From Escherichia phage vB_EcoM-Pr103Blw: a stretch of DNA of 64,000 bases. Made by a program: the position numbers and the translations under genes. Shown here in pieces: positions 3,013-42,050 of the stretch. Within the stretch, counting starts at the first letter, position 1, and each line of letters begins with the position of its first letter. The notes beneath the pieces are model-generated. The model was not told the DNA's origin. It made no database searches and saw only the letters and a program-made list of their open reading frames with translations. The stretch lies in sequence record MW481326.1; one strand, given 5' to 3'.

Positions 3013-3546
3013 CTATAATTGTAGGTTGCATTCTTTACTTACCTCTTCAAGTTTAACCTCAGAGTCCTTAAGTCGTTTCTTATGAACTCTGAATCTCATT
3101 AGTGAGATGATGATACCAACTAAAGGGGCAGCATACAAGTACCAAACATCATATACCTTTGCAGTAATCTGTGTAATGGTCAAATCTTGAGCTATGGAAC
3201 TGATTGCTGATACTGCCAGTAATGTTGCTAAGAAAAATGCCAGTACCATTACTGTACTCAAACAACCTCTGGCATGGTGTTCATGCTTAATGCACTTATT
3301 CTTTTCGTCAACAACCCTGTTGTAGTCGTTTGTAAAGTCTCTGTAGAAAGCTTTCAAGTACTCTTGAGTGTAGCCTTCAAAGCAACCTGTACCATACCAA
3401 TAATCACCACCAAAATGTGCTATGATACCAGTATCTCCGTTTGGTTTTGTTACTCTTAGGGAGACATGATGACCAGTCTTCTGGTAATCTATCTTGTATC
3501 TTTCTTCGTAAATCATTTTCCAATCCCTCTCAATCGTTTGTTCCAC
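3013..3546 (-). CDS. putative membrane protein
   Basis: 177-aa ORF with long hydrophobic stretch (VMVLAFFLATLLAVSAISSIA ... LVGIIISL). Confidence 0.45.
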   Translation of the reverse strand: MEQTIERDWKMIYEERYKIDYQKTGHHVSLRVTKPNGDTGIIAHFGGDYWYGTGCFEGYTQEYLKAFYRDFTNDYNRVVDEKNKCIKHEHHARGCLSTVMVLAFFLATLLAVSAISSIAQDLTITQITAKVYDVWYLYAAPLVGIIISLMRFRVHKKRLKDSEVKLEEVSKECNLQL

Positions 3547-3814: not shown

Positions 3815-4396
3815 TCAAGAGTATTTTTTAGGCAGTAATGCACTGCGCTTGTTGCTCTCTTCACTCAATAGTGCGATAAATTCATCACCTTTGCCTTTCC
3901 ACGGGCTAAATGTAGGGATGTGTTCTCTGATAGCCTCAATCACTGTCTTCAGTGCGTTATTCTTTAACCACCAATCAGATACTGCCGATGCTACAACATA
4001 GTAAGCACCATCATCTGTGAAGATTGGCTCAGAGATACATGGTGAAATCATGGTAGTGATGATTGAGCCATTATTCATGTAATATGTTCTTTTTTCAACC
4101 TTATCAAGAAGCTTATGAAGGTCTGCAAACAGACTCACCACCTCTTTATGGTCAATATCTTTTTCAAGATTTGCTCTATATTTCAATAGTGCAGCATCGA
4201 CCTCTTTGTCATTGAATTTGAAGTATTGAACTTCTTCATTCACACATACACTGATGTTGTTGGTGTTTATCGTCAATTTGCACAGTTTGACTGGAGAGTT
4301 AATGTTGGTCTGAAAAAGTGCTACACAGCCTTCTACATTCCCGAAATGTTTGACTAATGTAACTTCTGGTTGGATGTGCTCATGTTCTTCTGACAT
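3815..4396 (-). CDS. hypothetical protein
   Basis: 193-aa ORF. Confidence 0.45.
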   Translation of the reverse strand: MSEEHEHIQPEVTLVKHFGNVEGCVALFQTNINSPVKLCKLTINTNNISVCVNEEVQYFKFNDKEVDAALLKYRANLEKDIDHKEVVSLFADLHKLLDKVEKRTYYMNNGSIITTMISPCISEPIFTDDGAYYVVASAVSDWWLKNNALKTVIEAIREHIPTFSPWKGKGDEFIALLSEESNKRSALLPKKYS

Positions 4397-4740
4397 TATA
4401 GTTTCCTCATTAAATACTTTTTAAGTTGTGTGTTAGGTTTCTCAAAAACTTCTATAGAAGATATCTTGACAGACTCACCACGCATACCTGTATGTTTAAA
4501 TATGTAATACTCTAACATCCCTATGTACTTTGCTGGTAAGTCATGTTTGACATACACTGTTACAGAATCTTCAAATTCAACAACCTTTGTACCATCCTTG
4601 TAGTTAAACTCTCTAGGGTGGTTGTAGTTATCAATGTCATACATTAAAAAGAGTCTTTTCCGTTGCATGTCAAGCTTATTGGTTAAAGACTCTTTAATAT
4701 CTGAGAAGTTTTTGTACACTGTGACATGGAGCTTACTCAT
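4396..4740 (-). CDS. hypothetical protein
   Basis: 114-aa ORF, start overlaps upstream stop. Confidence 0.45.
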   Translation of the reverse strand: MSKLHVTVYKNFSDIKESLTNKLDMQRKRLFLMYDIDNYNHPREFNYKDGTKVVEFEDSVTVYVKHDLPAKYIGMLEYYIFKHTGMRGESVKISSIEVFEKPNTQLKKYLMRKL

Positions 4741-5026
4741 CGTTAAACTCTCTGACGAAGAAATAGTTGACTTTGTTATTACCTACCATAAGGTCAAAGC
4801 AGGTATTTTCAAAAGGCTTGTTGTAGGCATCATATGAAGTATATGTATCAGCTACTTGTTTAGTGTTGAGCTTTTTACTTGATGGATTTAAGAGGCCACC
4901 ATACAGCTTCTTGATAGCCTCTTCTACAACAGACCAGATAATTTCGTCAGTAATTTCTTCGTACAGGTCAAGTTCACGCTCTAGTGAGAAGTCACAAATA
5001 GGGAAAACAACCTGTACTTTACTCAT
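4733..5026 (-). CDS. hypothetical protein
   Basis: 97-aa ORF. Confidence 0.4.
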   Translation of the reverse strand: MSKVQVVFPICDFSLERELDLYEEITDEIIWSVVEEAIKKLYGGLLNPSSKKLNTKQVADTYTSYDAYNKPFENTCFDLMVGNNKVNYFFVREFNDE

Positions 5027-5424
5027 TAACGAATAACCTGTGAGACTTGAATTGCTTCGGTTACTGACAAGTCACCTACTTTCTCTTCTTTGATAAAGGT
5101 GAAGGTAAGTTCAACAGGTTCTTGCTTTTCTTGCTCAACTGGAATGCCATTAAGCTCATCACGGATTGATTGAGTTGTCCAGTCTTCTCCACCATCTGGA
5201 TAATGGATGGCGTAAAGAGGGAACTCCATATCATACCAGCCAAATACAGGGCAGCCATCTGCATCATCTCGCATCCTACGTAGTGTGCTACCTGAGCCTG
5301 TAAAACGAAGGCAGATATTACCATTACACTCAAAGATTACTGCATCAGCAAGACCAGCGTCTTCACGGCCATCATGCCCAAACGTGTCAACTTTTACTTG
5401 AATATCTCTAACATCTTTATTCAT
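5026..5424 (-). CDS. hypothetical protein
   Basis: 132-aa ORF. Confidence 0.45.
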   Translation of the reverse strand: MNKDVRDIQVKVDTFGHDGREDAGLADAVIFECNGNICLRFTGSGSTLRRMRDDADGCPVFGWYDMEFPLYAIHYPDGGEDWTTQSIRDELNGIPVEQEKQEPVELTFTFIKEEKVGDLSVTEAIQVSQVIR

Positions 5425-5815
5425 AAAAACCTCTCTCTGCTTGTTCGATTTTTGCTCTTAAAGTTTCGCAATACTGTAAATGGTAGTTAGCTTCTTGTTC
5501 ATGTGTTGCTAACTGCCTTTCAAGAACAGTTTTATAGTAACCTGCAAGTTGCTCTTTTGTCAATGGGTGCTCTGAAATAATATCAAGTCCACTTTCACCA
5601 AGAGGATTGAATTGTCCATGCTCATTGACATTGTAAGTCTCAAACTTGAACATACCATTGTTCACAGACTCAATAGGTGACAGTTCAACAAGCTCTACAG
5701 TAAACCGTGTATACACCTTGTCGCCTCTTGAAACTACATTGTTTCCAATGATGCGTACAAGCGAACCATTACGAGTGTATTTAAAAGTCCCAAAGTCACT
5801 AGCCCAAAGTTTCAT
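5417..5815 (-). CDS. hypothetical protein
   Basis: 132-aa ORF. Confidence 0.45.
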   Translation of the reverse strand: MKLWASDFGTFKYTRNGSLVRIIGNNVVSRGDKVYTRFTVELVELSPIESVNNGMFKFETYNVNEHGQFNPLGESGLDIISEHPLTKEQLAGYYKTVLERQLATHEQEANYHLQYCETLRAKIEQAERGFYE

Positions 5816-5829
5816 AGCTTTCTCCTTAG

Positions 5830-5856
5830 AAAATAAAAAGGCTCCCGAAGGAGCCT
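5830..5856 (-). terminator. Rho-independent terminator-like hairpin (GGCTCC-TTCG-GGAGCC then T-run on minus strand)
   Basis: Plus strand reads aaataaaaaGGCTCCcgaaGGAGCC; on minus strand the hairpin is followed by TTTTTATTTT; lies just downstream of endolysin gene. Confidence 0.55.
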
Positions 5857-5865
5857 ATGAAGATA

Positions 5866-6330
5866 TTACTTTGGGTATACACTGTCAAGGTAAATATCAG
5901 CTTCCATTCTGCGTCTGTTTTTAAGACCGTTTGAAGTGACCTTCTCACCTTTGACCGTTACCTTGTTCCACCACTGCATAGCTTCTGCACAACCTACCTT
6001 ATTACCAGCGTTGTGGCGCTTGATAAATGTAGAGTCCTGCATAGCCGTGATACCGATGTTGTATGTTTCACTAACAAGGGCATCAAACTCATTTTGAGTG
6101 GTTGGGGTTTTGATTGCTTTGTTGACTGCACTGACAAACTTTTCAACATCAGCAAGAAGATACTGTTCAGCCTGTTCCTCAGTAATCTTCATACCCATTT
6201 TGACAGGTCTTCCATCAATACGGATTGTCCCGTAACCAATTGTTGGGATTCCGGCAGAATCTTTGTAGGCTTCTAACTCAAGACCTTCAAAGAATTTAAT
6301 AGCCTCTAGACCCTTCTTTGATAGTTGCAT
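5866..6330 (-). CDS. endolysin, GH24 phage lysozyme family
   Basis: N-terminal FEGLELEAYKDSAGIPTIGYG matches the E-x8-D-x5-T catalytic pattern of T4/lambda-type lysozymes; strong RBS GGAGGTG upstream. Confidence 0.7.
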   Translation of the reverse strand: MQLSKKGLEAIKFFEGLELEAYKDSAGIPTIGYGTIRIDGRPVKMGMKITEEQAEQYLLADVEKFVSAVNKAIKTPTTQNEFDALVSETYNIGITAMQDSTFIKRHNAGNKVGCAEAMQWWNKVTVKGEKVTSNGLKNRRRMEADIYLDSVYPK

Positions 6331-7466
6331 TATTCACCTCCTACTGGATTAACGGTAACTGTTGCGGCATTAGAGGTTACTGAACCTCCTGCACCAGTAA
6401 CTACACAAGTGTATGAACCAGCATCATCTGCACTCGTTGCACTTTCTTTGGTGTAAGTTGCAGCAGTTGCACTAGGAATGTTTACGTTATCTTTCTTCCA
6501 CTGATAGCCTGTTGCACCAGTAGCTACAACACTTAGTGTCAAGGTTTCACCTTCTGTGATTTCTTGATTTGTTGGTTGCTGAGTAATAACTGGTAGTGCG
6601 TTTACTGTGATAGTTGCAGGGTTAGAAGTAACCGAACCTCCAGCACCTGTTACAACGCAAGTGTATGAGCCAGCATCTGCTGGAAGTGCACCAGATTTGC
6701 TATATGTGGCCTTTGTAGCTGAAGGGATGTCGGAACCATCTTTCTTCCATTGGTAACCAGTTGCACCTGTTGCAGTAACTGCTAAGCTGATGTTTCCACC
6801 TTCATTAACGGTCTGGTTAGAAGGTTGCTTGGTAATCACTGGTAAGGCATTCACAGTAACTGTTGCTGCATCTGATGTGACACTTGTCCCACCCTCCCCA
6901 GATACAACACAAGTATATGAACCAGCGTCAGAAGGAACCACTGACTGTTTTGTGTAAGTTGCAGAGGTAGCACTAGTGATATCTTCACCACCCTTCTTCC
7001 ACTGATACCCTGTGGCATTAACTGCAACAACACTTAAGGTAAGTGCACCACCTTCATTTACTGTTTGATTGGTTGGTTGCTGAGTGATTGATGGTGGTTT
7101 GATAGCATCCTTTAACTTAGCATTTAACATTGAGAATGGTTTAACTCTTGCCAACCATTCACAATAAACAGTATCAACGTCTTTACCATTGATAATTGCA
7201 TATTGCAAATCCATGAAGAAATCAGAAGTTCTCATTTGAGTACCGATGCTGTAAAGCAACTCATCACTAAATGGGACTTTATAGGCTGGTTTGTAGTCAA
7301 ACTCTTCAACTTCTGCAATATCAGCTTCAGGCCAATACGAACTATAAGTAAGTGGCAAAATAGCCTCTTGATATGTTCTAAAATCATATCTCTTACCAGC
7401 CTTTACATTTGCAACGAAGCCCTTTACAAACTCTTTGAAGTCTGGGTAAGTCTTTGCTTTAATCAT
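6330..7466 (-). CDS. protein with three tandem Ig-like domains and an N-terminal domain paralogous to the neighbouring ORF
   Basis: Three about 85-aa repeats each containing ATGYQWKK ... DAGSYTCVV (Ig-fold Y-x-C signature); N-terminal 130 aa shares WPE(A/E)DI, YKP, LLY, FxMDxQY, RxNAKL with ORF 7463..7834. Confidence 0.6.
   Translation of the reverse strand: MIKAKTYPDFKEFVKGFVANVKAGKRYDFRTYQEAILPLTYSSYWPEADIAEVEEFDYKPAYKVPFSDELLYSIGTQMRTSDFFMDLQYAIINGKDVDTVYCEWLARVKPFSMLNAKLKDAIKPPSITQQPTNQTVNEGGALTLSVVAVNATGYQWKKGGEDITSATSATYTKQSVVPSDAGSYTCVVSGEGGTSVTSDAATVTVNALPVITKQPSNQTVNEGGNISLAVTATGATGYQWKKDGSDIPSATKATYSKSGALPADAGSYTCVVTGAGGSVTSNPATITVNALPVITQQPTNQEITEGETLTLSVVATGATGYQWKKDNVNIPSATAATYTKESATSADDAGSYTCVVTGAGGSVTSNAATVTVNPVGGE
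6333..7079 (-). repeat. three tandem about 250-bp coding repeats (Ig-like domain units)
   Basis: Near-identical peptide blocks repeated three times in the translated ORF. Confidence 0.6.
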
Positions 7467-15162: not shown

Positions 15163-15235
15163 AGCGGTATAGCATAACTGGCAATGCAGCAGTCTCTGAA
15201 GCTGTCTTATTAAGGTTCAAATCCTTATGCCGCTG
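15163..15235 (+). tRNA. tRNA-Gln (anticodon CTG)
   Basis: D-stem GCAT/ATGC, anticodon stem GCAGT/GCTGT loop CTCTGAA, T-arm TAAGG-TTCAAAT-CCTTA, CCA encoded. Confidence 0.6.
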
Positions 15236-15269
15236 CCACTTCTAAGGATTCTTACGAGAGTCCTTAAAT

Positions 15270-15342
15270 GTGGCCTTATCATAAACGGTAATGACCCATG
15301 CTGTGAACATGGTCTATACGGGTTCAAATCCCGTAGGTCACC
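15270..15342 (+). tRNA. tRNA-His (anticodon GTG)
   Basis: anticodon stem CCATG/CATGG loop CTGTGAA, T-arm ACGGG-TTCAAAT-CCCGT, discriminator C, CCA encoded. Confidence 0.65.
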
Positions 15343-15350
15343 CCAATTTA

Positions 15351-15425
15351 TAGTCCAAGTAGCTTATATGGTTAAAGCGCGTGTCTGAAAAACATGAGAA
15401 GAGGGTTCAAATCCCACTGGACTAC
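15351..15425 (+). tRNA. tRNA-Phe (anticodon GAA)
   Basis: perfect acceptor TAGTCCA/TGGACTA, anticodon stem CGTGT/ACATG loop CTGAAAA, T-loop TTCAAAT; exact ends uncertain. Confidence 0.55.
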
Positions 15426-15443
15426 CAATTTCAAAGGTGCTTA

Positions 15444-16178
15444 ATGAAAGAGATGACAGAACAAGGTAAGGAGATTTTCAATCTCTTAAAAACTGGTAAA
15501 GGGTTTTCTAACCCCCTTATTACTGGTGCAGCAGTTCTCGGTGGAACCGTAGCTGCCTCTACATCACTTGTAAGCTCTATTAGCTCTGTATCAGACCCTA
15601 CAGTAAAGGATAAGCTTGTTGCTGCTGGACTTACAACAGTTCTGCTTAACAGCTTTACCACGAGTCTGACAAGCACTACATCAACTACCAAAACACTGAC
15701 AGATTATGGTCAAAAGTCCATTGATGAGTTCTCATCACGTATGCAGGTAGCAAAAGGTTATTCTAATGTTATGGGTGCAGCAGGTGAACAAGTTGGCTGT
15801 ACACCATTTAGTGGTATTATGGGTGTTGCTACAGAGTATGGTCAAAAAGCTATTGATACGATTAACAGTGCACTAGATAGTGTTAATGGTGTGTTAAGTG
15901 ACTTACAAGATGCTATTGACAAAGGTCTTGATACTATTTCTGATTTAGCTGAGCAAGCTGTTAGTAAGATTAATGAAGGTATTTCAAAAATTACAGCTTA
16001 TGCAGATGAAGTTGTACAGATGATTGAAGAAGAAGCTGCTCTTATTGCAGAGTACCTTAAAACGAATATCAATGGGTTCTTAGCAGGTATCTTACCAGAC
16101 TGGTTTGATGATGCTTGTAAAACTGGTGTAATTGACACTATTGCAACACCAGAAATGAAGAACGCATTACAGAAATAA
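15444..16178 (+). CDS. hypothetical Ser/Thr-rich protein
   Basis: ORF-track ORF starts inside tRNA-Phe; internal ATG at 15444 preceded by AAAGGTG chosen as start. Confidence 0.5.
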   Translation: MKEMTEQGKEIFNLLKTGKGFSNPLITGAAVLGGTVAASTSLVSSISSVSDPTVKDKLVAAGLTTVLLNSFTTSLTSTTSTTKTLTDYGQKSIDEFSSRMQVAKGYSNVMGAAGEQVGCTPFSGIMGVATEYGQKAIDTINSALDSVNGVLSDLQDAIDKGLDTISDLAEQAVSKINEGISKITAYADEVVQMIEEEAALIAEYLKTNINGFLAGILPDWFDDACKTGVIDTIATPEMKNALQK

Positions 16179-16180
16179 AT

Positions 16181-16270
16181 GGAAGATTAACCCTAAAAGG
16201 TAAGGGAGCAGTTTGCTAAACTGCCAGTAGCTGAGAAATCGGTGTACCAGTTCAAGTCTGGTATCTTCCT
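16181..16270 (+). tRNA. tRNA-Ser (anticodon GCT), long variable arm
   Basis: perfect acceptor GGAAGAT/ATCTTCC, anticodon stem GCAGT/ACTGC loop TTGCTAA, about 20-nt variable arm, T-arm ACCAG-TTCAAGT-CTGGT, CCA encoded. Confidence 0.7.
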
Positions 16271-16277
16271 CCAATTT

Positions 16278-16350
16278 GAATCCGTGACAGAAATGGCTAT
16301 GTGCCTGTCTGCAAAACAGGTTTATAAGGGTTCGAGTCCCTTCGGATTCT
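16278..16350 (+). tRNA. tRNA-Cys (anticodon GCA)
   Basis: perfect acceptor GAATCCG/CGGATTC, anticodon stem CCTGT/ACAGG loop CTGCAAA, T-arm AAGGG-TTCGAGT-CCCTT, CCA encoded. Confidence 0.7.
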
Positions 16351-16391
16351 CCAAGTTATTTTACTCTCTCTCAATTAAAATAATAATAATG

Positions 16392-33439: not shown

Positions 33440-34908
33440 TGGCAGGATTAACTACAACAGGATTACAAACTCTAAGATATCAGGAAATTTTTGATAATAT
33501 CAAATCAAGACTTCTTAGAGATATTTCACCAAACCTTGACGTTTCTGAAGATAGCCAATTAGGTCTCTTCCTAGCTTCAATTGCAAGGTCTTTAGCAGAT
33601 ACACATGAGATTCTATCAGAAATCTATGACGGCGGGACAATTGACAAGGCTGAAGGATTTAACCTTGATGATATTACAGCTTTGAATGCTGTATACAGAT
33701 ATGTTGCTCAGGCAACAAGAGGTCAAGTTGAGTTTACTGGAACTACTGGTGCTACCATTCCTTCAACAACAAGATTAAGAAGTACTGCCGGAAACATCTT
33801 TTATCCAGTTAATAACATTACCCTTACTCCATCATATTGTGTTGAAGCTACACTTGAAGTTAACTCTTTACGAACTGATGCAGATTATGTTATTATTATT
33901 GATAACGTCATTTTCTCATATAAACCAACCTCATTAGACACAATCACTACGCTGCTAACAAAATTAGCAGAAGCTATTAATGGTGGTATTGTAGCAAAAG
34001 CAGAAGTCATTAATGATGGAGCCGCATTAAGAGTCTATAAAGACGAAGGTGATATCATTGCAAGAACAAACCCTATGGTTGTCACTGCAACAACGTTTCT
34101 GACCTTTACAAAGATTACAACTATTTCAGATGTAGTAGCTGAAGAGGTTGGTGCTACCCCTGCTTTGGCTGGTACGCTTATTGAGATTGAGACAACTGTT
34201 GATGGTCTTGACAGTATTTATAACAGGTATGACTTAACAACTGGTAGAAACGAAGAAACTGACACAGAACTTAGACAGAGATATTTAGAATCCTTAGCAG
34301 TTACTGGTGTAGGGACTTTGGATGCAATTGTGGCTGCTGTTAAAAGAGTTCAAGGGGTCTCAGATGCTTCAGGTGTTGAAAATGATACTGAAGAGACGAA
34401 CTCAGAAGGTCTTCCACCAAAATCTTTTAAGATTGTCGTAGTTGGTGGTCAAAACGATAATGTTGCTCAAGCAATCTGGGATACAAAACCTGCTGGTATT
34501 AGGGCTTATGGCTCGATTTTTGGCACAGCCTATGATTTAGGTGGTTTAGCACATAATATTTATTTTAGCAGACCAACACCAAAATACGCATTTGTTAAGG
34601 TGTCTTACTCATTATATGACGAAGAAAGTTTGACAATCCCTGAAGAAGATATCAGAGATAGTATTGTGCAAGGTATTAACGCCTACGGAAGAACTCTTAA
34701 GGTTGGTAATGATGTTATCCCTAACAGAATTTATGGGTACATCTATGACGTAATCAAAGGTATTGAGATTAATGAGGTGAAAGTAGCATTATCAAACAGC
34801 CAATCAGTTCCACCTAGTGACGGACAATATACTACAGCAAGAATTACTGTTGACGGTGACCAATATACTGTTTGGGAAAGTAGCCAGTATACCATCACTA
34901 AGGAGTAA
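33439..34908 (+). CDS. baseplate protein (gpJ-like, putative)
   Basis: 489-aa ORF, position. Confidence 0.4.
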
Positions 34909-34910
34909 TA

Positions 34911-35765
34911 ATGTTTGAAAAGATTGATAGTGTTTACTATAAAACACTTGATGAAAGGACTGTAACACAGTTTAAAGATAAATTTATCTATACAAGTATC
35001 TTGAAAGCAATCACTGATGAATTACAAACTCTAGAGGATGTTTGCTGGCAGATGCACACAGAGAGAAATATCAGGACGTCAGTAGGCCAACAACTTGATA
35101 ACATTGGCTCACTGATTAAAGTTCCTAGACCTTTAGGTGCAGATGATGAAACATATAGGGCTATGCTTTATATCCAAATCTTCCTAAGACGCTCTGACAC
35201 CACCCCAACATTCTTGCAAAAAGCAATTATGACGCTATATGGTGCAACTTTCTCTCAGATTTTTGAGCATATTACTCCTAAGACTGGTGGTATCGTTATC
35301 CGTATCAACACTAGAAAAAGCGTTCTAGATGCTGCATATACATTGTCAAAGATTTCTGCAACAACTACTGGCTCCGCTGTCATCTTAAGAGATGTTACTT
35401 TAAATGGAACTGCTTGGACTCCTGTAGAGGTTGCTGATTCATCACTTGCTATTGTTGATGATAAAGAGAACTGGTTTGTAACTGATGCTAACAGAGGTCT
35501 TGTCACAAATAACACTGGCGGCTCTCTGGAGTCCAACTTAGTAGGTAGTCTTGCAGATGCTGGTGTTATTGATGGTTACTTTAAGGTTGACAGAACAGCA
35601 AACCCACAGAGCGATGATTATATGACTGTAGATAGGTCTAATAATAGTGGCTATTTCATTGCTGGTAAAGAAGCTATTGCAGGTGGTGCATATGGAATCA
35701 TGGCTGAGGTTGCACAAATTGTCAAAGGCAGAAAAGATAAATCACAACAAGAAGGAAATTCTTAA
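34911..35765 (+). CDS. baseplate/tail-fiber-associated protein (putative)
   Basis: 284-aa ORF. Confidence 0.4.
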
Positions 35766-36067
35766 TGGCAGTTCTAAATTGGTCTACAAACGAAGTAGAT
35801 ACTGATGGTAATCAGTTAAAAGTTTTACCACCACCGGAAGTTCAAGAGACAGGTCTTTTAAAGGGTGAGCCTATGGGTAGACAGTGGTTCAACTATATTA
35901 TCAACTACCTGCTGAATAAAGTAAATGGCACTGTTGGTGAAGTTCGTTCATATGCAACTGAGCAACCAGATTTAGTGGCTAATGGCTGGAATCTCATTAA
36001 GTCTGAGACAGGGACTGCATCAACAAGTACAAGAAACCTTTACACATATGAATACGTAGGAGCTTAA
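35765..36067 (+). CDS. hypothetical tail protein
   Basis: 100-aa ORF. Confidence 0.4.
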
Positions 36068-36069
36068 TA

Positions 36070-37245
36070 ATGGCAGTAGGTGAAATTCAAATTAGTGCCT
36101 TGCCACAAGCGGCCTTACCAGTTGATTTGAGTGATATCTTCCACCTTAAGCAAGGTGTTGAGGATAAAAGATGTACGCTTGAGCAGTTGTTAGCACCTCA
36201 CGCATCTTTGAGGAATAACCCTCATGGTGTAACTAAATCACAAGTAGGTCTTGATAATGTTATTAACTCTCTTCAATTAGTTGCAGCTAATAACTTGTCA
36301 GATATTGTAAGTGTTGCTGAGGCAAGAGCAAATCTACAAATTATGTCGTCAGAGGAAGTGAATAACTTAATTCAGCAACATATTGACGACAAAAGTAACC
36401 CACACAATACAACGAAAGCGCAGGTCGGTTTAAGTAATGTTCAGAACTGGACAACATCTAATCTGTACAATGAAGATGCTGATAAGTATGCTACCGCGAG
36501 AGCAGTGAATAATTTATACAAAGCTATCCAAGCATCATATCCAGTAGGGACTATTCATCTATCTGTTAACTCTGCTAACCCATCCACTTACTTGCTTTGT
36601 GGAGGTACTTGGGAGTTAGTTTCCAAAGGTAGAGCACTAGTTGGTTATGATACAGATTCTAGACCTGTTGGTTCAATGTTTGGTTCTCAGACTGTAGCAT
36701 TAACAAATAATAATTTACCAGCGCATACTCACTCTATCTATCTAACAGGTGGTGGTCATACACACTCTGCAAGCGTATCTATCTCTAGCTTTGATTATGG
36801 TTCAAAAAGTACATCGACTTTTGATTATGGTACGAAGACAACTAACAGTGCTGGTGCTCACACGCACACGTTTAGTGGCACAACAAGCAATGCTGGTAAC
36901 CACAACCATAGAGTACCTATGAGGGGTAATGATAGAGGTGGTACAAATGCTATTACTGCATCTGCTGATGCTGGTGTTGGTAATGCTATGTATACTGATT
37001 TAGCTGGTGCTCACACCCATAGCTTCTCAGGCACAACTGCATCATCTGGTGCTCATAGTCATACTGTTGCAATTGGTGCTCATAGTCACACTGTTAATAT
37101 TGGTTCACACAGTCATACAGGTACTGTTACTGTTTCTAGCTCCGAGCATACACACTCAGGAACATCTGGTTCTGTTGGTGGTGGTCAAGCTTTCAGTATT
37201 GAGCAACCATCTTTTGTAGTATATGTGTGGCAGAGAACAGTTTAA
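36070..37245 (+). CDS. tail fiber protein with His-rich C-terminal repeats
   Basis: C-terminus has reiterated HTHS / AHTHTFSGTTS / GAHSHTV blocks, resembling metal-binding HxH tips of T-even fibers. Confidence 0.6.
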   Translation: MAVGEIQISALPQAALPVDLSDIFHLKQGVEDKRCTLEQLLAPHASLRNNPHGVTKSQVGLDNVINSLQLVAANNLSDIVSVAEARANLQIMSSEEVNNLIQQHIDDKSNPHNTTKAQVGLSNVQNWTTSNLYNEDADKYATARAVNNLYKAIQASYPVGTIHLSVNSANPSTYLLCGGTWELVSKGRALVGYDTDSRPVGSMFGSQTVALTNNNLPAHTHSIYLTGGGHTHSASVSISSFDYGSKSTSTFDYGTKTTNSAGAHTHTFSGTTSNAGNHNHRVPMRGNDRGGTNAITASADAGVGNAMYTDLAGAHTHSFSGTTASSGAHSHTVAIGAHSHTVNIGSHSHTGTVTVSSSEHTHSGTSGSVGGGQAFSIEQPSFVVYVWQRTV

Positions 37246-37255
37246 TTTCTTTACA

Positions 37256-37275
37256 GGGGCTTTATAGCCCCTTTT
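37256..37275 (+). terminator. Rho-independent terminator GGGGC-tttata-GCCCC + TTTT
   Basis: GC stem plus T-run between the two fiber genes. Confidence 0.5.
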
Positions 37276-37291
37276 AAGAGGAAAATTCATA

Positions 37292-39664
37292 ATGGCAGAT
37301 TACAAATTGAGTCAATTAAACTCAATCGACACAATTCGTTCAGAAGACCTATTGCACATCAGAGTTAAGAAAAGACCTGAAATGTTGGGTGACGAAGACC
37401 GTAGAATGACCTATCAAGACTTCTTAGCTTCCTTCAAACTAGAAAGGTTTGTTCAGATTGCTGGTAGCACTATGACGGGTGATTTAGGTATTGTCAAGTT
37501 ACTTTACGGTGGCAAGGCTGTATTTGACCCTACAGGCTCTTCTGAGATTACTATTGGGGATATTTTAAAGACTTTTAAAATTAACTCAAATGGTCTTAAA
37601 CTCACTATTGCAGATGCTTCAAGGTCAGCAACTGTTTATCATACTTTGAATAAACCAAGCCCTAATGAACTTGGTATGAGAACTAATGAAGAGAATGATG
37701 CGAGATATGCAAGACTTGCTGTCACAAACACATTCTCTGGAACTCAGAACATTCAAGGTGATGCTAACTTACTTCGCCTTAGAAACCAAAATGCAAACAA
37801 TGCACAATACATTGAAGGTGTAAACCTAGATGGTTCAGCTAGATGGTGGGTTGGTATTGGTAGTAATGGTTCTGATGAAGTGAAGCTGTATAATAACAAA
37901 TATAATTCAGCCTTGACTGTTGCAAGCAATATCTCTGTTAATAAATCTTTAGCAATCACTGGTCAAGTTCAACCTTCAGATTTCTCTAACTTAGATGCTA
38001 GATACTTCACTCAGACAGTTGCTAATCAGAGATTTGCACAGTTAGCTGCTAATAACAATTTTACTGGAACAAACACATTCAGCAGAAACCTCACCATCAT
38101 CAGTGATAGTGCTGCTTTAAGGTTGAAAAATGCAACAGCTAGCTCACTATTCATTCAGGGTGTTGACTCTCAGAACACTAACAGGTGGTATGTAGGGAAC
38201 GGGGATAACACAGCCTCTGTGCTGTTACACAACTATGTACACGGTTCAAATATTAGGCTTGATAATGGCTATATCTCAGTCAACCAGAACTTCAGAATCA
38301 CTGGTCAAGTTCAACCTTCAGATTGGGCTAACATTGACTCTAGATATATTCCGGCAGCAACATTAAGTACTATTGCAAGAACTAATGCACAAAACACTTT
38401 TAACGGTGTACAGAAAGTTGTTACGGATAATGAAGCTCTAATTTTGAAAAACTCTACTCAGAACAGACCATTGTATATCCGTGGTGTGGACACTGCTAAT
38501 GTGTCAAGGTGGTGGGTAGGTGTTGGTGGGGCAGATACTAATGATGTTACCCTAAATAACAGTTTTTCTGGCACTCAGTTAGTTTTAGGTAACTCATCTG
38601 CAAGCATCAATAAGACACTATCTCTGACTGGACAGATTCAACCTTCAGATTTCTCTAACTTAGATGCCAGATATTATACGCAATCTGTCGCAAACTCTAG
38701 GTACATGCTTGCTGTATCTACTGGTTCTGGTACAGAGGTTGGTGATGGAGATGGTATTGCTTGGAATGCTAGAACTGGTTTGTATAATGTTACAGGGAAA
38801 ACTGGCGGTTCAACACAACTGGTTTATCAGATGTTTATCGGTGGTGGTTCAACACCAACTGCACAGTTGAAGTTTAGCTACGGGAATGGTGGTATTTTGT
38901 ACAGGACAGCACGAGATGGGTATGGTTTTGAGAAGGCATGGGCTAAAATCTATACAGACCAAGATAAACCAACCCCTTCAGATATTGGTGCATACACTAA
39001 AGCAGAAACTGACCAGAGAATCGCAGAAGCAATTAGTGACTCTACAGACCTGAATAAAATCTATCCAGTAGGTATTGTGACGTGGTTTAACAGTAATGTC
39101 AACCCCAACACAGCACTTCCTGGGTTAACTTGGACGTACCTGAACAATGGTGTTGGTAGAACTATTAGAATTGCAGCAGCAAACGGTTCAGATGTTGCTA
39201 CAACTGGTGGTTCAGACTCTGTAACGTTATCTGTTGGTAACTTACCTTCACATACACACAGCTTCTCTGCTACCACTTCATCATTTGATTATGGTACTAA
39301 GACTTCTAGCACAACTGGTAACCATAACCACAACAGAGGTACTATGGAGATTACTGGTACAGTGGGTTACTTTAGAAGTGACTCTAGCAGCTTCTACACA
39401 GCAAGTGGTGCATTCACACTTGGTAGCTCAACTGCTTCTAAAGGCTTCACTGGTTCTAACTTTACTTATGGTATCCCTGCTAACTTTAATGCGTCAAGAA
39501 CTTGGTCTGGCGTTACTAACACAACTGGTAACCATAACCATACTGTAGGTATTGGTGCTCACAACCACACAGTTAGCGGTAACACAGGTGGTACTGGTTC
39601 TGGTTCAGCATTTAGTGTTACTAACCAGTTCTATAAGTTAATGGCTTGGGTAAGAACTGCTTAA
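37292..39664 (+). CDS. long tail fiber protein with three internal tandem repeats and His-rich C-terminal tip
   Basis: 790 aa; about 110-aa unit containing ITGQVQPSDFSNLDARY repeated three times; C-terminal GNHNHTVGIGAHNHTVSG. Confidence 0.65.
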   Translation: MADYKLSQLNSIDTIRSEDLLHIRVKKRPEMLGDEDRRMTYQDFLASFKLERFVQIAGSTMTGDLGIVKLLYGGKAVFDPTGSSEITIGDILKTFKINSNGLKLTIADASRSATVYHTLNKPSPNELGMRTNEENDARYARLAVTNTFSGTQNIQGDANLLRLRNQNANNAQYIEGVNLDGSARWWVGIGSNGSDEVKLYNNKYNSALTVASNISVNKSLAITGQVQPSDFSNLDARYFTQTVANQRFAQLAANNNFTGTNTFSRNLTIISDSAALRLKNATASSLFIQGVDSQNTNRWYVGNGDNTASVLLHNYVHGSNIRLDNGYISVNQNFRITGQVQPSDWANIDSRYIPAATLSTIARTNAQNTFNGVQKVVTDNEALILKNSTQNRPLYIRGVDTANVSRWWVGVGGADTNDVTLNNSFSGTQLVLGNSSASINKTLSLTGQIQPSDFSNLDARYYTQSVANSRYMLAVSTGSGTEVGDGDGIAWNARTGLYNVTGKTGGSTQLVYQMFIGGGSTPTAQLKFSYGNGGILYRTARDGYGFEKAWAKIYTDQDKPTPSDIGAYTKAETDQRIAEAISDSTDLNKIYPVGIVTWFNSNVNPNTALPGLTWTYLNNGVGRTIRIAAANGSDVATTGGSDSVTLSVGNLPSHTHSFSATTSSFDYGTKTSSTTGNHNHNRGTMEITGTVGYFRSDSSSFYTASGAFTLGSSTASKGFTGSNFTYGIPANFNASRTWSGVTNTTGNHNHTVGIGAHNHTVSGNTGGTGSGSAFSVTNQFYKLMAWVRTA
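37740..38735 (+). repeat. three tandem about 330-bp coding repeats within tail fiber gene
   Basis: Repeated peptide blocks (LxLKN ... RWWVG ... TGQVQPSD(F/W)(S/A)N(L/I)D(A/S)RY). Confidence 0.6.
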
Positions 39665-39743: not shown

Positions 39744-39941
39744 ATGCCTACAATCCTAGCAATTCTTCTAAAAAATCTAGGTAGCTTCTTCTGGAAACTC
39801 ATTTTATCCCTTCTAAGTGAATACATGATTGAGAAAGTGTTCTTTAAGCTTGCAAGATATCTTGCGAGTAAGACAGACACACCTATTGATGATGAGTTCG
39901 TAGATAACTTAGAAAAAGCTTTTAAGGGGGAGAATAAATGA
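39744..39941 (+). CDS. small hydrophobic protein (holin-like candidate)
   Basis: 65-aa ORF with hydrophobic N-terminus ILAILLKNLGSFFWKLILSLL. Confidence 0.35.
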   Translation: MPTILAILLKNLGSFFWKLILSLLSEYMIEKVFFKLARYLASKTDTPIDDEFVDNLEKAFKGENK

Positions 39942-40309
39942 AGTGGCTAGAGGATGCTTTTAAAAATAATATTGGTGCAATTGTAGTTGGTATTTTTAGT
40001 GTTATTGGGATGTATACCACGATGCAAGTTTCAAGTGGTAAGCAAGAAGTGTCTGTCACAACGAAGTTACAGCAGCTAGATAATTATTCCAAAAGTAACT
40101 ATTCAGCTATTCGTGATTTACAGTCTGACATGAGACTTATTCAGTTAGGGATGGAGAATCAGAAAGTTCAGTTAGAGAATGTTAAGGGTGAGAATGCAAA
40201 ACTTACCAAAACTCTTGATAAGTTCTCTGACAGTGTAAATAATCTGGCTCAATCAGTATCAGCCCTCCAAGCTATTACTGAGAAGAACACAAAAAGTACT
40301 GAAAAATAA
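39938..40309 (+). CDS. membrane-anchored coiled-coil protein (i-spanin-like or assembly factor)
   Basis: 123-aa ORF: N-terminal TM segment IGAIVVGIFSVIGMYTTM then helical region. Confidence 0.4.
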   Translation: MKWLEDAFKNNIGAIVVGIFSVIGMYTTMQVSSGKQEVSVTTKLQQLDNYSKSNYSAIRDLQSDMRLIQLGMENQKVQLENVKGENAKLTKTLDKFSDSVNNLAQSVSALQAITEKNTKSTEK

Positions 40310-40315
40310 AGTTTA

Positions 40316-40343
40316 AGGCTCCCGTAAAAAGGAGCCTTTTTTG
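40316..40343. terminator. bidirectional Rho-independent terminator AGGCTCC-cgtaaaaa-GGAGCCT + TTTTTT between convergent gene blocks
   Basis: 7-bp GC-rich stem with T/A tracts on both sides; structural block ends 40309, thyA ends 40347. Confidence 0.7.
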
Positions 40344-40346
40344 TTT

Positions 40347-41246
40347 CTACTTACCTACTGACAAAGGTGCTTCAATCTTTCCTGCATGTTGGTAGTTGTA
40401 AATGCCACCAATAAAATCACTTGCAGTAAGGTGTTTTAGGTCACTTAGTGTGCTAAGTGGCACACCAATCTCAAAAGTAGGTGCATGGAAATCTTCATTG
40501 TTCATCAGTTCATAAACCTGCTTCATATGGTTCTGATAAATCTGGGTATCCCCAAAGACACCTATCAAGTACCGTGGAGTGTATCCAGTCATCTTGCAAA
40601 GAACTTCTAAGATGAAGCCATAAGACGCAATGTTAAATGGAAGCCCTAAAAAGGTGTCTACAGAACGTTGATACCATTGCAAGTCAACTTCACCTTCGTT
40701 AGTGATATAAATCTGAAACAGAACATGACAAGGTGCTAAAGCCATTGAGTTTGCTGCGATATCTGCTGCATTCCAAGCATTAACAAGCATGTATCGGTCT
40801 GTGATATCACCCTTCATCTTCGTTACTAAGGTCTCTAGCTGGTCTACAACACAACCGTTATGACCTTCAAAGTTTCTCCACTGAACTCCATAGATTCTCC
40901 CACCTGCATCCTCTAACCAATCTTGTTCAGAAGAATAATTAGAGCTTAACCAACGTTTAAAATCATCTGACCAGATAGTCCAGCGTTCTCCGTCATTTTC
41001 ATCCCAAGTACGGTAACGAAGTTCACCCAGCTTATTCTCACCATTCAGGAACCATAAAGCCTCCCCAATAACTTGCCGTGTAAACACCTGTTTAGATGTT
41101 AAGAGCGGGAAACCAGTTCGCATATCAAAACGAAACTGAGGTGGAGCAAATGCAGAGATAACATCTCCAGTTCGTGTAGTACGCAGTTCACCAACGGATA
41201 AAACATGGTTCAGGATATTTTTGTAACTCAAATCAGCTTGTGACAT
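40347..41246 (-). CDS. thyA: thymidylate synthase (ThyA family)
   Basis: Active-site motif LAPCHVLFQ (P-C-H) and IYGVQWR block; 299 aa. Confidence 0.75.
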   Translation of the reverse strand: MSQADLSYKNILNHVLSVGELRTTRTGDVISAFAPPQFRFDMRTGFPLLTSKQVFTRQVIGEALWFLNGENKLGELRYRTWDENDGERWTIWSDDFKRWLSSNYSSEQDWLEDAGGRIYGVQWRNFEGHNGCVVDQLETLVTKMKGDITDRYMLVNAWNAADIAANSMALAPCHVLFQIYITNEGEVDLQWYQRSVDTFLGLPFNIASYGFILEVLCKMTGYTPRYLIGVFGDTQIYQNHMKQVYELMNNEDFHAPTFEIGVPLSTLSDLKHLTASDFIGGIYNYQHAGKIEAPLSVGK

Positions 41247-41247
41247 A

Positions 41248-41793
41248 TTAAAAGTGTCCTTTTACTTGTGGAACATAAATTTCAAAGGTTGCTTTACCGT
41301 CTTCTGAAAGTCTTGACTGAACCTTTGCAAATACACGGTTATCATACAGCTTATCGAAGAAGTTTTCAAAAGGTAAATGTACAGTGGCCTCTTCAGTCAC
41401 TTTATGGAAGACTGTGTGGAACACTACATCAGCATACGGTAAAGCACTGACAAGAATACCTGCACCACCAATTACAAAGACATCTTCATCAATAGAGCTG
41501 TCAAGATACTTCAAAAATGCTCCAAAGGATTCTTTACTGGCCTTAGCATACATTACATCATCTTTGTCAAAATCTATACCTAAATATGGTACAGAATTTG
41601 TTAAGATAAGGTTTTCACGGTCAGGTAAAGGCTTACTACCCAGAGTCTTAAAAGTCTCATTACCCATTACCACTAAGTTGTTTTTAGTGAGTCTCTTAAA
41701 TTCTTGCATGTCCTGTTTATGTCTAGGCCACGGCATACCAGTCGGTGTACCAAATTCACCATTTTCGCCACTTGCAAAGATTAGTTTAATCAT
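41248..41793 (-). CDS. dihydrofolate reductase
   Basis: N-terminal MIKLIFASGENGEFGTPTGMPW resembles DHFR (I-x-A-x-x-x-x-G ... PW) and VMGNETF; adjacent to thyA. Confidence 0.65.
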   Translation of the reverse strand: MIKLIFASGENGEFGTPTGMPWPRHKQDMQEFKRLTKNNLVVMGNETFKTLGSKPLPDRENLILTNSVPYLGIDFDKDDVMYAKASKESFGAFLKYLDSSIDEDVFVIGGAGILVSALPYADVVFHTVFHKVTEEATVHLPFENFFDKLYDNRVFAKVQSRLSEDGKATFEIYVPQVKGHF

Positions 41794-42050
41794 TTTGTAA
41801 ATCCTTTCTTAATGAACCAGTTAATAACATTCTTCACAGCTTTATTGCTGTGATAGATTAAGTGTGGTGTAGGTTGGTATGAACCATAGGCCCAGAATGA
41901 TAGATGCTCACCACAACAAACACATGTCGTACTCTCTTCAGCTATATGACCATTAACAATCACATGAACTTCACCTTGCAAGTCTGTACATCCACAATGT
42001 GGGCATCGGATAGGGGTTCCATCAGACTCATAGCAGTGTTCAATTTTCAT
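41790..42050 (-). CDS. zinc-ribbon protein
   Basis: 86-aa ORF with CPHCGC ... CVCCGEH cysteine pairs. Confidence 0.45.
   Translation of the reverse strand: MKIEHCYESDGTPIRCPHCGCTDLQGEVHVIVNGHIAEESTTCVCCGEHLSFWAYGSYQPTPHLIYHSNKAVKNVINWFIKKGFTK

Follow-up and report, generated by a model that had tools for sequence, protein, structure and literature searches.

Two adjacent tail fibre genes were analyzed in a 64,000-nucleotide (nt) stretch of DNA from Escherichia phage vB_EcoM-Pr103Blw (sequence record MW481326.1), hereafter the window, namely open reading frame (ORF) 1, which encodes the shorter fibre, and ORF2, which encodes the longer one (Table 1); the term short fibre refers here to relative length only. 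That this region holds two fibre genes had been proposed in an initial annotation of the DNA, and Pfam, PHROG and Megablast searches as well as homology to the fibres of phage Bas63 (JohannRWettstein) confirmed it. ORF1 is 75% identical to bas63_0026 (gp26) over 391 amino acids (aa) and matches the tail fibre family phrog_2097 (E = 1e-138), and ORF2 is 62% identical to bas63_0027 (gp27) over its full length of 790 aa and matches the tail fibre family phrog_4277 (1395 bits, full length). Megablast of the fibre region retrieved 242 phage records, nearly all of them Felix O1-like (Escherichia, Salmonella, Shigella), the best of which were 92–95% identical, with none spanning the entire query in one piece. 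Because of these matches and of a gene order shared with such phages, the window is assigned to a Felixounavirus genome, i.e., to a Felix O1-like myophage whose two fibres would be ORF1 and ORF2. We regard it as highly probable that both carry tips of the T4 gp37 type, putatively riveted by metal, and that their heads and shaft domains are exchanged as cassettes.

Table 1. Features of the fibre locus, with positions in the window (aa, amino acids; HxH, histidine–any residue–histidine motif; HMM, hidden Markov model; AF2, AlphaFold2)
Feature	Position	Strand	Basis
100-aa protein, Bas63 gp25 counterpart	35765–36067	+	size and position as bas63_0025; phrog_4141, E = 1.5e-60
ORF1, short tail fibre, 391 aa	36070–37245	+	orthologue of Bas63 gp26
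ORF1 aa 1–140, baseplate-binding N-terminus and helical shaft	36070–36489	+	conservation, AF2 helices
ORF1 aa 141–215, collar (T4 gp10 C-terminal / gp37 collar fold)	36490–36714	+	Pfam PF21939
ORF1 aa 216–280, ascending needle strand, HxH at 219, 230, 264, 278	36715–36909	+	
ORF1 aa 281–314, head, presumed receptor-contacting turn	36910–37011	+	hypervariable
ORF1 aa 315–391, descending needle strand and C-terminus	37012–37245	+	HxH at 315, 329, 338, 347, 360
ORF2, long tail fibre, 790 aa	37292–39664	+	orthologue of Bas63 gp27
ORF2 aa 1–129, baseplate/platform-binding N-terminus and first shaft domain	37292–37678	+	conservation
Repeat R1, ORF2 aa 130–238, 109 aa	37679–38005	+	repeat-built HMM, Pfam PF20744
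Repeat R2, ORF2 aa 239–352, 114 aa	38006–38347	+	Pfam PF20744
Repeat R3, ORF2 aa 353–461, 109 aa	38348–38674	+	PF20744, best stretch aa 381–474
ORF2 aa 462–585, distal shaft domain (Pfam PF12604 gp37_C)	38675–39046	+	PF12604, E = 1.3e-19
ORF2 aa 586–650, collar	39047–39241	+	identity of 90% or more in each of 119 relatives; weak PF21939 match
ORF2 aa 651–680, short ascending needle strand, HxH 654 and 678, SSFDYGTK	39242–39331	+	left head-cassette boundary
ORF2 aa 681–745, enlarged head, presumed receptor-binding cassette	39332–39526	+	identity contrast among relatives
ORF2 aa 746–790, descending needle strand and conserved C-terminus	39527–39664	+	right head-cassette boundary
Terminator-like hairpin	40315–40338	readable on both strands	junction of plus-strand ORF 39938–40309 and minus-strand ORF 40347–41246

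The C-terminal half of ORF1 contains 18 histidines, all of which (18/18) fall in HxH pairs, and ORF1 has nine HxH motifs, to which ORF2 adds four (aa 654, 678, 748, and 757). In 20,000 composition-preserving shuffles these numbers were never reached (mean 1.4 for ORF1 and 0.17 for ORF2). The peptides quoted in the initial annotation were all found in the two proteins: AHTHSF at ORF1 aa 314, GAHSHTV at ORF1 aa 327 and again at aa 336, GNHNHTVGIGAHNHTV at ORF2 aa 746, which includes the HxH motifs 748 and 757, and TGQVQPSDFSNLDARY, a helix-turn linker of the shaft, at ORF2 aa 223 (variants of it lie at aa 337 and 446). The same annotation had likened the reiterated HxH blocks to the metal-coordinating tips of T-even fibres, a comparison that the searches carried further, as ORF1 aa 145–362 matched chain positions 17–227 of the T4 gp37 tip structure 2XGF (phmmer, E = 8.2e-27). 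In this alignment HxH 230, 264, and 278, the head, and HxH 315, 329, 338, and 347 fall on iron sites 1–3, the head, and iron sites 4–7 of T4 gp37 (7/7), and the two extra motifs relative to T4, at aa 219 and 360, adjoin the collar. The ORF1 head (34 aa) equals that of gp37 in length and position. The ORF1 collar (Pfam PF21939 Gp10_C, E = 3.6e-18) aligns both with the collar part of 2XGF and with T4 gp10 (2FKK) and was modelled by AF2 with a predicted local distance difference test (pLDDT) score of 85–92; in the ascending strand the motif (S/T)FDYG(S/T)K is duplicated, and the conserved C-terminus returns to the collar. Lambda Stf and fibres like it share ~49% identity with the ORF1 needle.

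Among 56 short-fibre homologues, down to 34% overall identity, the HxH histidines of ORF1 are kept in 45–56 (those of the ascending strand in 45–55), H347 and H349 are invariant, and where histidines are missing they have been lost or deleted pairwise; short fibres of relatives have 6–11 HxH motifs, with a mode of nine. The head, on the other hand, is only 0–29% identical to the window in 45 of the 48 genus homologues, against mostly 50–89% for its flanks, and DNA identity to Felix O1 drops to 50% within it. At the other end of the protein, aa 1–140 are 60–100% identical across the same 48 homologues (at least 80% in 42 of them), and aa 66–106 are helical in the AF2 model. Tandem Repeats Finder (TRF) detected a 27-nt repeat at 37036–37115 (2.1–2.6 copies, 80–83% matches) which encodes GAHSHTVxI nonapeptides, a plausible substrate for the gain or loss of single HxH units. 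The motif NPHxxTKxQVGLxNVxN occurs twice in ORF1 (aa 49–66 and 109–126), as the 18-aa copies NNPHGVTKSQVGLDNVIN and SNPHNTTKAQVGLSNVQN at 36214–36267 and 36394–36447 of the window; the region of the second copy (~aa 101–131) is the segment matched by many unrelated tail-protein PHROGs, and the motif is probably a generic helix-turn fibre motif.

For the long fibre, domain identities were compared in 119 relatives, repeat counts in the 120 nearest ORF2 homologue clusters together with Bas63, and domain arrangements in 122 long fibres. The collar of ORF2 is 31% identical to the collar and needle of ORF1 (E = 1e-15), and the two tips are paralogues. A profile of ORF2 homologues matched 2XGF over aa 655–770 (E = 2.7e-10), with HxH 654 and 678, the head, and HxH 748 and 757 aligned to sites 1 and 2, the head, and sites 5 and 6 of T4 gp37. 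Since its four HxH motifs fall on these four sites, the needle of ORF2 is presumably shortened around a larger head, which spans 70 aa from HxH to HxH, compared with 34–48 aa in six-HxH tip types. All eight tip histidines are invariant in 37 long-fibre homologues and the head between them is variable; aa 746–790 have an identity of 80% or more in each of the 119 relatives, and long fibres of relatives have either four or six HxH motifs. Some Felixounavirus long fibres (P0031; phages AYO145A and VpaE1) have a six-HxH tip close to T4 gp37, in which aa 46–100 (the descending needle approach and the head) are ~64% identical to their gp37 counterpart, a match that points to tip cassettes having passed between Ounavirinae and T-even phages. 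Judged by these alignments, the HxH blocks of ORF1 and ORF2 go beyond mere resemblance and are homologues of the needle by which the T4 gp37 tip coordinates metal. The histidines, which stay constant or nearly so among varying neighbours, support a function of the protein, which would be the binding of metal in both fibres.

Between the N-terminal region of ORF2, to which none of the 119 relatives is less than 90% identical, and its collar lies the repeated shaft. The three tandem repeats of about 110 aa that had been described in the longer fibre were recovered as such (109, 114, and 109 aa), each matching Pfam PF20744 (gp37_trimer; three matches, E = 2.4e-85, 281 bits against a curated cutoff of 21.7), with mutual identities of 40–43% as protein and ~55% as DNA. 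R2 matches the pyramid domain of T7 gp17 (aa 369–442) in sequence (E ~ 1e-6) and, in a Foldseek search with the ORF2 model, the T7 gp17 structure 4A0U (root mean square deviation 2.3 Å over 65 columns), and the three-repeat array aligns with the T4 gp34 shaft 5NXH (E = 7e-4). The distal shaft domain, which ends in the conserved linker KPTPSDIGAYTKAETDQ, is homologous to the Mu tail fibre S (ORF2 aa 478–580 with 8JU3 aa 329–429, E = 1.3e-22; Foldseek 4e-6). The PF12604 domain of ORF2 is closest to the versions of Salmonella phages (75–81% identity). In long-fibre variants of 846–850 aa this domain of ~100 aa is replaced by a longer, unrelated one that Pfam does not recognize, and the flanking linkers are unchanged; such a replacement was found in about a third of the listed relatives (e.g., phage E9, L001 positions 4069–6618, and P0014).

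The way in which these domains vary suggests exchange of whole units. Identities of R1 and R2 to the window are bimodal in the 119 relatives (either 50–59% or at least 80%), there are several modes for R3, for the PF12604 domain and for the head, and 26 of the 32 combinations of same and other alleles occur. Clustering gave 16 repeat types in 30 arrangements among the 122 long fibres, with two types found at two positions; the sequence type of R3 in the window occupies position R3 in 78 relatives and position R1 in Bas63. When DNA identity was followed over 30-nt segments, it fell from at least 93% to 33–56% inside the cassettes and returned to 93–100% in the linkers, with sharp breakpoints around R1. 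The head cassette of ORF2 is bounded by SSFDYGTK and HxH-678 on the left and by VGIGAHxHTV on the right: DNA identity collapses just before the HxH-678 codons and recovers from the VGIGAHxHTV codons on, and the Megablast matches to Salmonella phages stop at query positions 3242–3250, i.e., 39311–39319 of the window. Cassettes bounded by HxH motifs and linkers fit what is known of T-even adhesin genes, which tend to recombine where motifs are conserved; exchanges within or near such motifs were described by Tetart (1996, 1998) as cited in PMC3157838. What varies within the genus is the sequence type of each repeat, swapped as a cassette between conserved linkers at a constant count, and ORF2 itself is a mosaic. 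These comparisons add modest evidence that the shaft varies through the exchange of cassettes at conserved linkers and not through gradual drift; such exchange speaks against the "tolerated drift" proposed for Bas63 and leaves room for a functional role of the shaft domains.

The head type was compared with the known isolation hosts. The ORF2 head is 100% identical to that of E9, an E. coli phage isolated on O157:H7, 98% to that of the E. coli phage H12 and 73% to that of JN01, as opposed to 12–20% for Felix O1, fBSPA4, and VpaE1, and the ORF1 tip is 99% identical to the E9 short-fibre tip. Given the 99% identity of both tips to their E9 counterparts, the host is probably E. coli of an O157-like type. 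The comparison supports the view that the tip behaves as an exchangeable cassette which tracks the host genus, and it is most likely the hypervariable heads that read out host specificity. The initial annotation had named the tip sequence as a likely determinant of host range; the comparison of relatives bears out its exchange and its association with host genus, and that it causes the host range is what we infer from this association.

In the model that we favour, ORF1 and ORF2 would form two homotrimeric fibres attached to the baseplate, one short and one long. Each tip would consist of a collar followed by a needle, along which the chain runs out, makes a small head and returns, and every HxH motif, contributed by three chains, would create an octahedral site of six histidines around a metal ion (Fe2+ in T4) that rivets the needle. 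The short fibre would thus have a long needle with up to nine metal sites, and the long fibre a short needle with four metal sites and a larger head. The long shaft is pictured as a chain of beta-rich domains, with three PF20744 repeats (T7 gp17 pyramid-like, T4 gp34-like) followed by the Mu fibre S-like domain, and with invariant helix-turn linkers (TGQVQPSDFSNLDARY and similar) between them. Heads and single shaft domains would be swapped between phages by homologous recombination in the conserved linkers and HxH motifs, which would generate combinatorial mosaics. The trimeric state, the receptor-touching residues and the host we likewise infer.

Several observations weigh against this model. 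The monomeric AF2 model of ORF1, built on a 56-sequence alignment, had a mean pLDDT of only 68.8, with the head below 50 and only the collar confident, and a Foldseek search of the PDB with this model yielded no match at E ≤ 0.001, nor was 2XGF among its results; for ORF2 the mean pLDDT was 46.6, with 24–41 in the tip. T4 gp37 requires the chaperones gp38 and gp57A (PMC3157838), and no fibre chaperone was recognized when the two ORFs downstream of ORF2 and ten small ORFs from the structural module were scanned, among which the tape-measure chaperone was the only one found; the window covers 64 kb of a genome of ~87 kb. The association of head type with host comes from a handful of isolation hosts, lipopolysaccharide is no more than a loose definition of the receptor for phages of the Felix O1 type, and fBSPA4, a Salmonella phage, has most of the fibre in common with the window apart from the head, so that other determinants may contribute. 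As regards the models, an intertwined trimer would be expected to yield poor monomeric tips and an uninformative fold search for ORF1, and the ORF1 results were for this reason not counted against the gp37 fold. The ORF1 model does contain long strands at aa 222–238 and 349–365, placed symmetrically about the head within a low-confidence tip, and in the ORF2 model the repeat cores reached a pLDDT of 70–85, with only these cores and the Mu-like domain giving meaningful fold matches.

Four alternatives were weighed against gp37-type tips with exchangeable heads and shaft domains. The one that survives best, which we hold to be possible though clearly the less probable account, is that the tip heads are not the sole seat of specificity and that R1, R2, R3 and the PF12604 domain also bind surface glycans on the flank of the fibre or are targets of host defence. 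It would account for shaft cassettes that vary as discontinuously as the head, as seen in the two identity classes of R1 and R2, in the 26 allele combinations and in the 30 arrangements of repeat types, as well as for the replacement of the PF12604 domain by an unrelated one in the 846–850-aa variants, and the authors of the Bas63 study consider both possibilities as well (PMC12609058). The homologous domains of T4, T7, and Mu, however, are structural elements of shafts, the cassette variation could be neutral hitch-hiking with recombination, and glycan binding by the shaft, like a correlation of shaft types with host, is hypothetical. A related and somewhat more doubtful thought is that the long shaft is a combinatorial cassette array of fixed length, with three slots plus one, and more than a passive spacer. 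If this were true, the ~110-aa beta domains would be under diversifying selection through their contact with host surface glycans or their sensing by a host defence, the helix-turn linkers would set the register of the trimer and at the same time offer built-in sites for recombination, and host range or escape from defence would be encoded along the whole fibre, beyond the metal-riveted tip.

It is improbable, in our judgement, that the HxH blocks are kept mainly as DNA recombination linkers or as generic beta-strand repeats that bind no metal. The boundaries of the cassettes do coincide with HxH-containing motifs, in keeping with the T-even exchanges near conserved adhesin motifs as cited in PMC3157838, yet the histidine codons differ synonymously (CAT/CAC) between phages in the DNA alignment, which argues that selection acts on the amino acid. 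The histidines moreover persist at 34% overall identity and are lost only in pairs, the motifs correspond one-to-one to crystallographically defined iron sites, and the roles of linker and metal ligand do not exclude each other.

Still less credible is the idea that variation in repeat number alters fibre length and drives host range, with the array acting as a hotspot of expansion and contraction; the initial annotation had named repeat number as a likely host-range determinant and recombination hotspot. The repeats are indeed present in relatives, and exactly three PF20744 copies occur in all 120 nearest clusters and in Bas63 (121/121), consistent with the absence of repeat-number variation reported for the genus (PMC12609058). 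In favour of the idea are exact DNA matches of 29–31 nt between the junctions of R1/R2 and R1/R3 and two distant metagenomic long-fibre homologues (~40–46% identity) with four repeats (P0242, 901 aa) and five repeats (P0241, 1015 aa); across the wider family, a profile search of 1.84 billion representative proteins found 1–5 copies. Both homologues share the ORF2-type C-terminus, P0241 also the N-terminus, and P0242 is without ~30 N-terminal residues; neither has a close relative among sequenced phages, for which the best matches are Felixounaviruses at 49% and 44% identity. Higher counts were thus met only in these distant homologues, the repeats are just ~55% identical as DNA, and TRF gave no array with a period near 330 nt, only the 27-nt repeat of ORF1 and a trivial 12-nt one, so that a repeat-number hotspot is largely refuted within the genus. 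That ORF1 is a gp10-like structural protein of the baseplate and not a receptor-binding fibre deserves hardly any credence, for although Gp10_C is its sole Pfam match above threshold and its PDB matches include T4 gp10, the gp10 match is limited to the collar (aa 143–240), the best PDB match is the gp37 tip over aa 145–362, the Bas63 orthologue is a 430-Å fibre by cryo-EM (PMC12609058) and the ORF1 head is hypervariable, as expected of a receptor-binding part.

Two further fibre types were considered and found no support. A gp12-type short fibre was set aside after a PDB search with ORF1, taken up to E = 1, gave only gp37 and gp10 chains and no gp12. A fibre of the T2/T6/S16 type with a separate gp38 adhesin was not supported either: no adhesin match was found in the two small ORFs downstream of ORF2 (39744–39941 and 39938–40309), their DNA is 89–99% identical across phages with differing fibre tips, and the fibre carries its own head, as in T4. 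This DNA identity also makes it unlikely that the two encode tip-specific chaperones or adhesins. The products of these ORFs (65 and 123 aa) have hydrophobic N-termini and belong to PHROGs without known function; the 123-aa one has a coiled-coil tail and is labelled "holin" in phage JN01. Overlapping ORFs in other frames (e.g., 37007–37219 and 39234–39548) were dismissed as frame artefacts of a repetitive His/Thr/Gly coding sequence.

The gene order around the fibres is common to the window, Bas63, Felix O1, E9, H12, JN01, fBSPA4, and VpaE1, and comprises wedge 2 (489 aa), wedge 1 (~285 aa), the 100-aa platform protein, the short fibre, the long fibre and two small ORFs, followed on the opposite strand by td and frd (thymidylate synthase and dihydrofolate reductase). 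In the window, the genes 5' of the fibres encode a Baseplate_J protein of 489 aa, a baseplate protein of 284 aa and the 100-aa protein, and the ORF sizes of 489, 284, 100, 391, and 790 aa correspond to bas63_0023 to bas63_0027. In Bas63, gp25 is the T4 gp9-like platform through which the long fibre is docked onto the wedge of the baseplate (PMC12609058). The hairpin at the 3' end closes the plus-strand block with the fibre genes where the minus-strand td gene begins. The baseplate wedge genes (33770–34070 and 34970–35720) are 92–100% identical to those of E9, fBSPA4, JN01, and H12 and only 64–81% identical to those of Felix O1 and VpaE1, with neighbouring genes being more uniform, and the wedge may co-vary with the attachment parts of the fibres. 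Dips to 74–81% DNA identity to some relatives at 41270–41420 and 41870–42020, within surroundings of 90–97%, fall in the frd gene and a region of small minus-strand ORFs and form further small mosaic patches. Elsewhere in the window, 26 plus-strand tRNA genes, including two tRNA-Met and a tRNA-His(gtg), are clustered at 11128–16353; large tRNA arrays are a known trait of Felix O1-like phages.

The fibre architecture described here is already known from close relatives (PMC12609058, PMC11821841). The cryo-EM study of Bas63 (2025) reported a short fibre gp26 of 430 Å and a long fibre gp27 of 630 Å, both of which have a collar, needle and head that resemble those of T4 gp37 and contain HxH motifs, and for the long fibre five beta-helix repeat domains with helix-turn motifs between them; across the genus, repeat number is constant and the tips and repeat domains 2–5 are variable (PMC12609058). 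In the Shigella phage Sf14, each of the two fibres is reported to consist of a single protein, the distal tip of the longer one resembles T4 gp37, and the genome has no chaperone genes of the Mu type (PMC11821841). The window adds one further allele combination to this architecture. Salmonella typing makes use of Felix O1-type phages, which are also being developed as agents of biocontrol and therapy directed at Salmonella and E. coli, and exact cassette boundaries, i.e., the HxH and SSFDYGTK motifs for heads and the TGQVQPSD...RY linkers for shaft domains, would be useful for host-range engineering.

With Bas63 and Sf14, the two fibres share a baseplate-binding N-terminus, a shaft in which helix-turn linkers separate repeated beta domains, and a gp37-like HxH tip (PMC12609058, PMC11821841). 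They differ from Bas63 in the number of HxH motifs, since its short fibre has seven HxH, without those at ORF1 aa 264 and 278, against nine in ORF1, and its long fibre has six against four in ORF2 with its 70-aa head span. Mu S and lambda Stf are accompanied by a separate downstream chaperone gene of the Tfa/U type, none of which was recognized in the two ORFs downstream of ORF2. In T4, the gp37 tip stands at the end of a ~1,400-Å fibre made of four proteins, whereas the tips of ORF1 and ORF2 cap single-protein fibres. The HxH motifs of gp37 coordinate iron along the needle (Bartual et al. 2010, as summarized in PMC12609058); collar and needle are homologous in the window, with seven iron HxH aligned in ORF1 and four in ORF2, which is without equivalents of sites 3, 4, and 7. 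T7 gp17 (4A0T/4A0U), finally, has one copy of the pyramid domain directly before its tip, whereas ORF2 has three tandem, exchangeable copies in the middle of its shaft.

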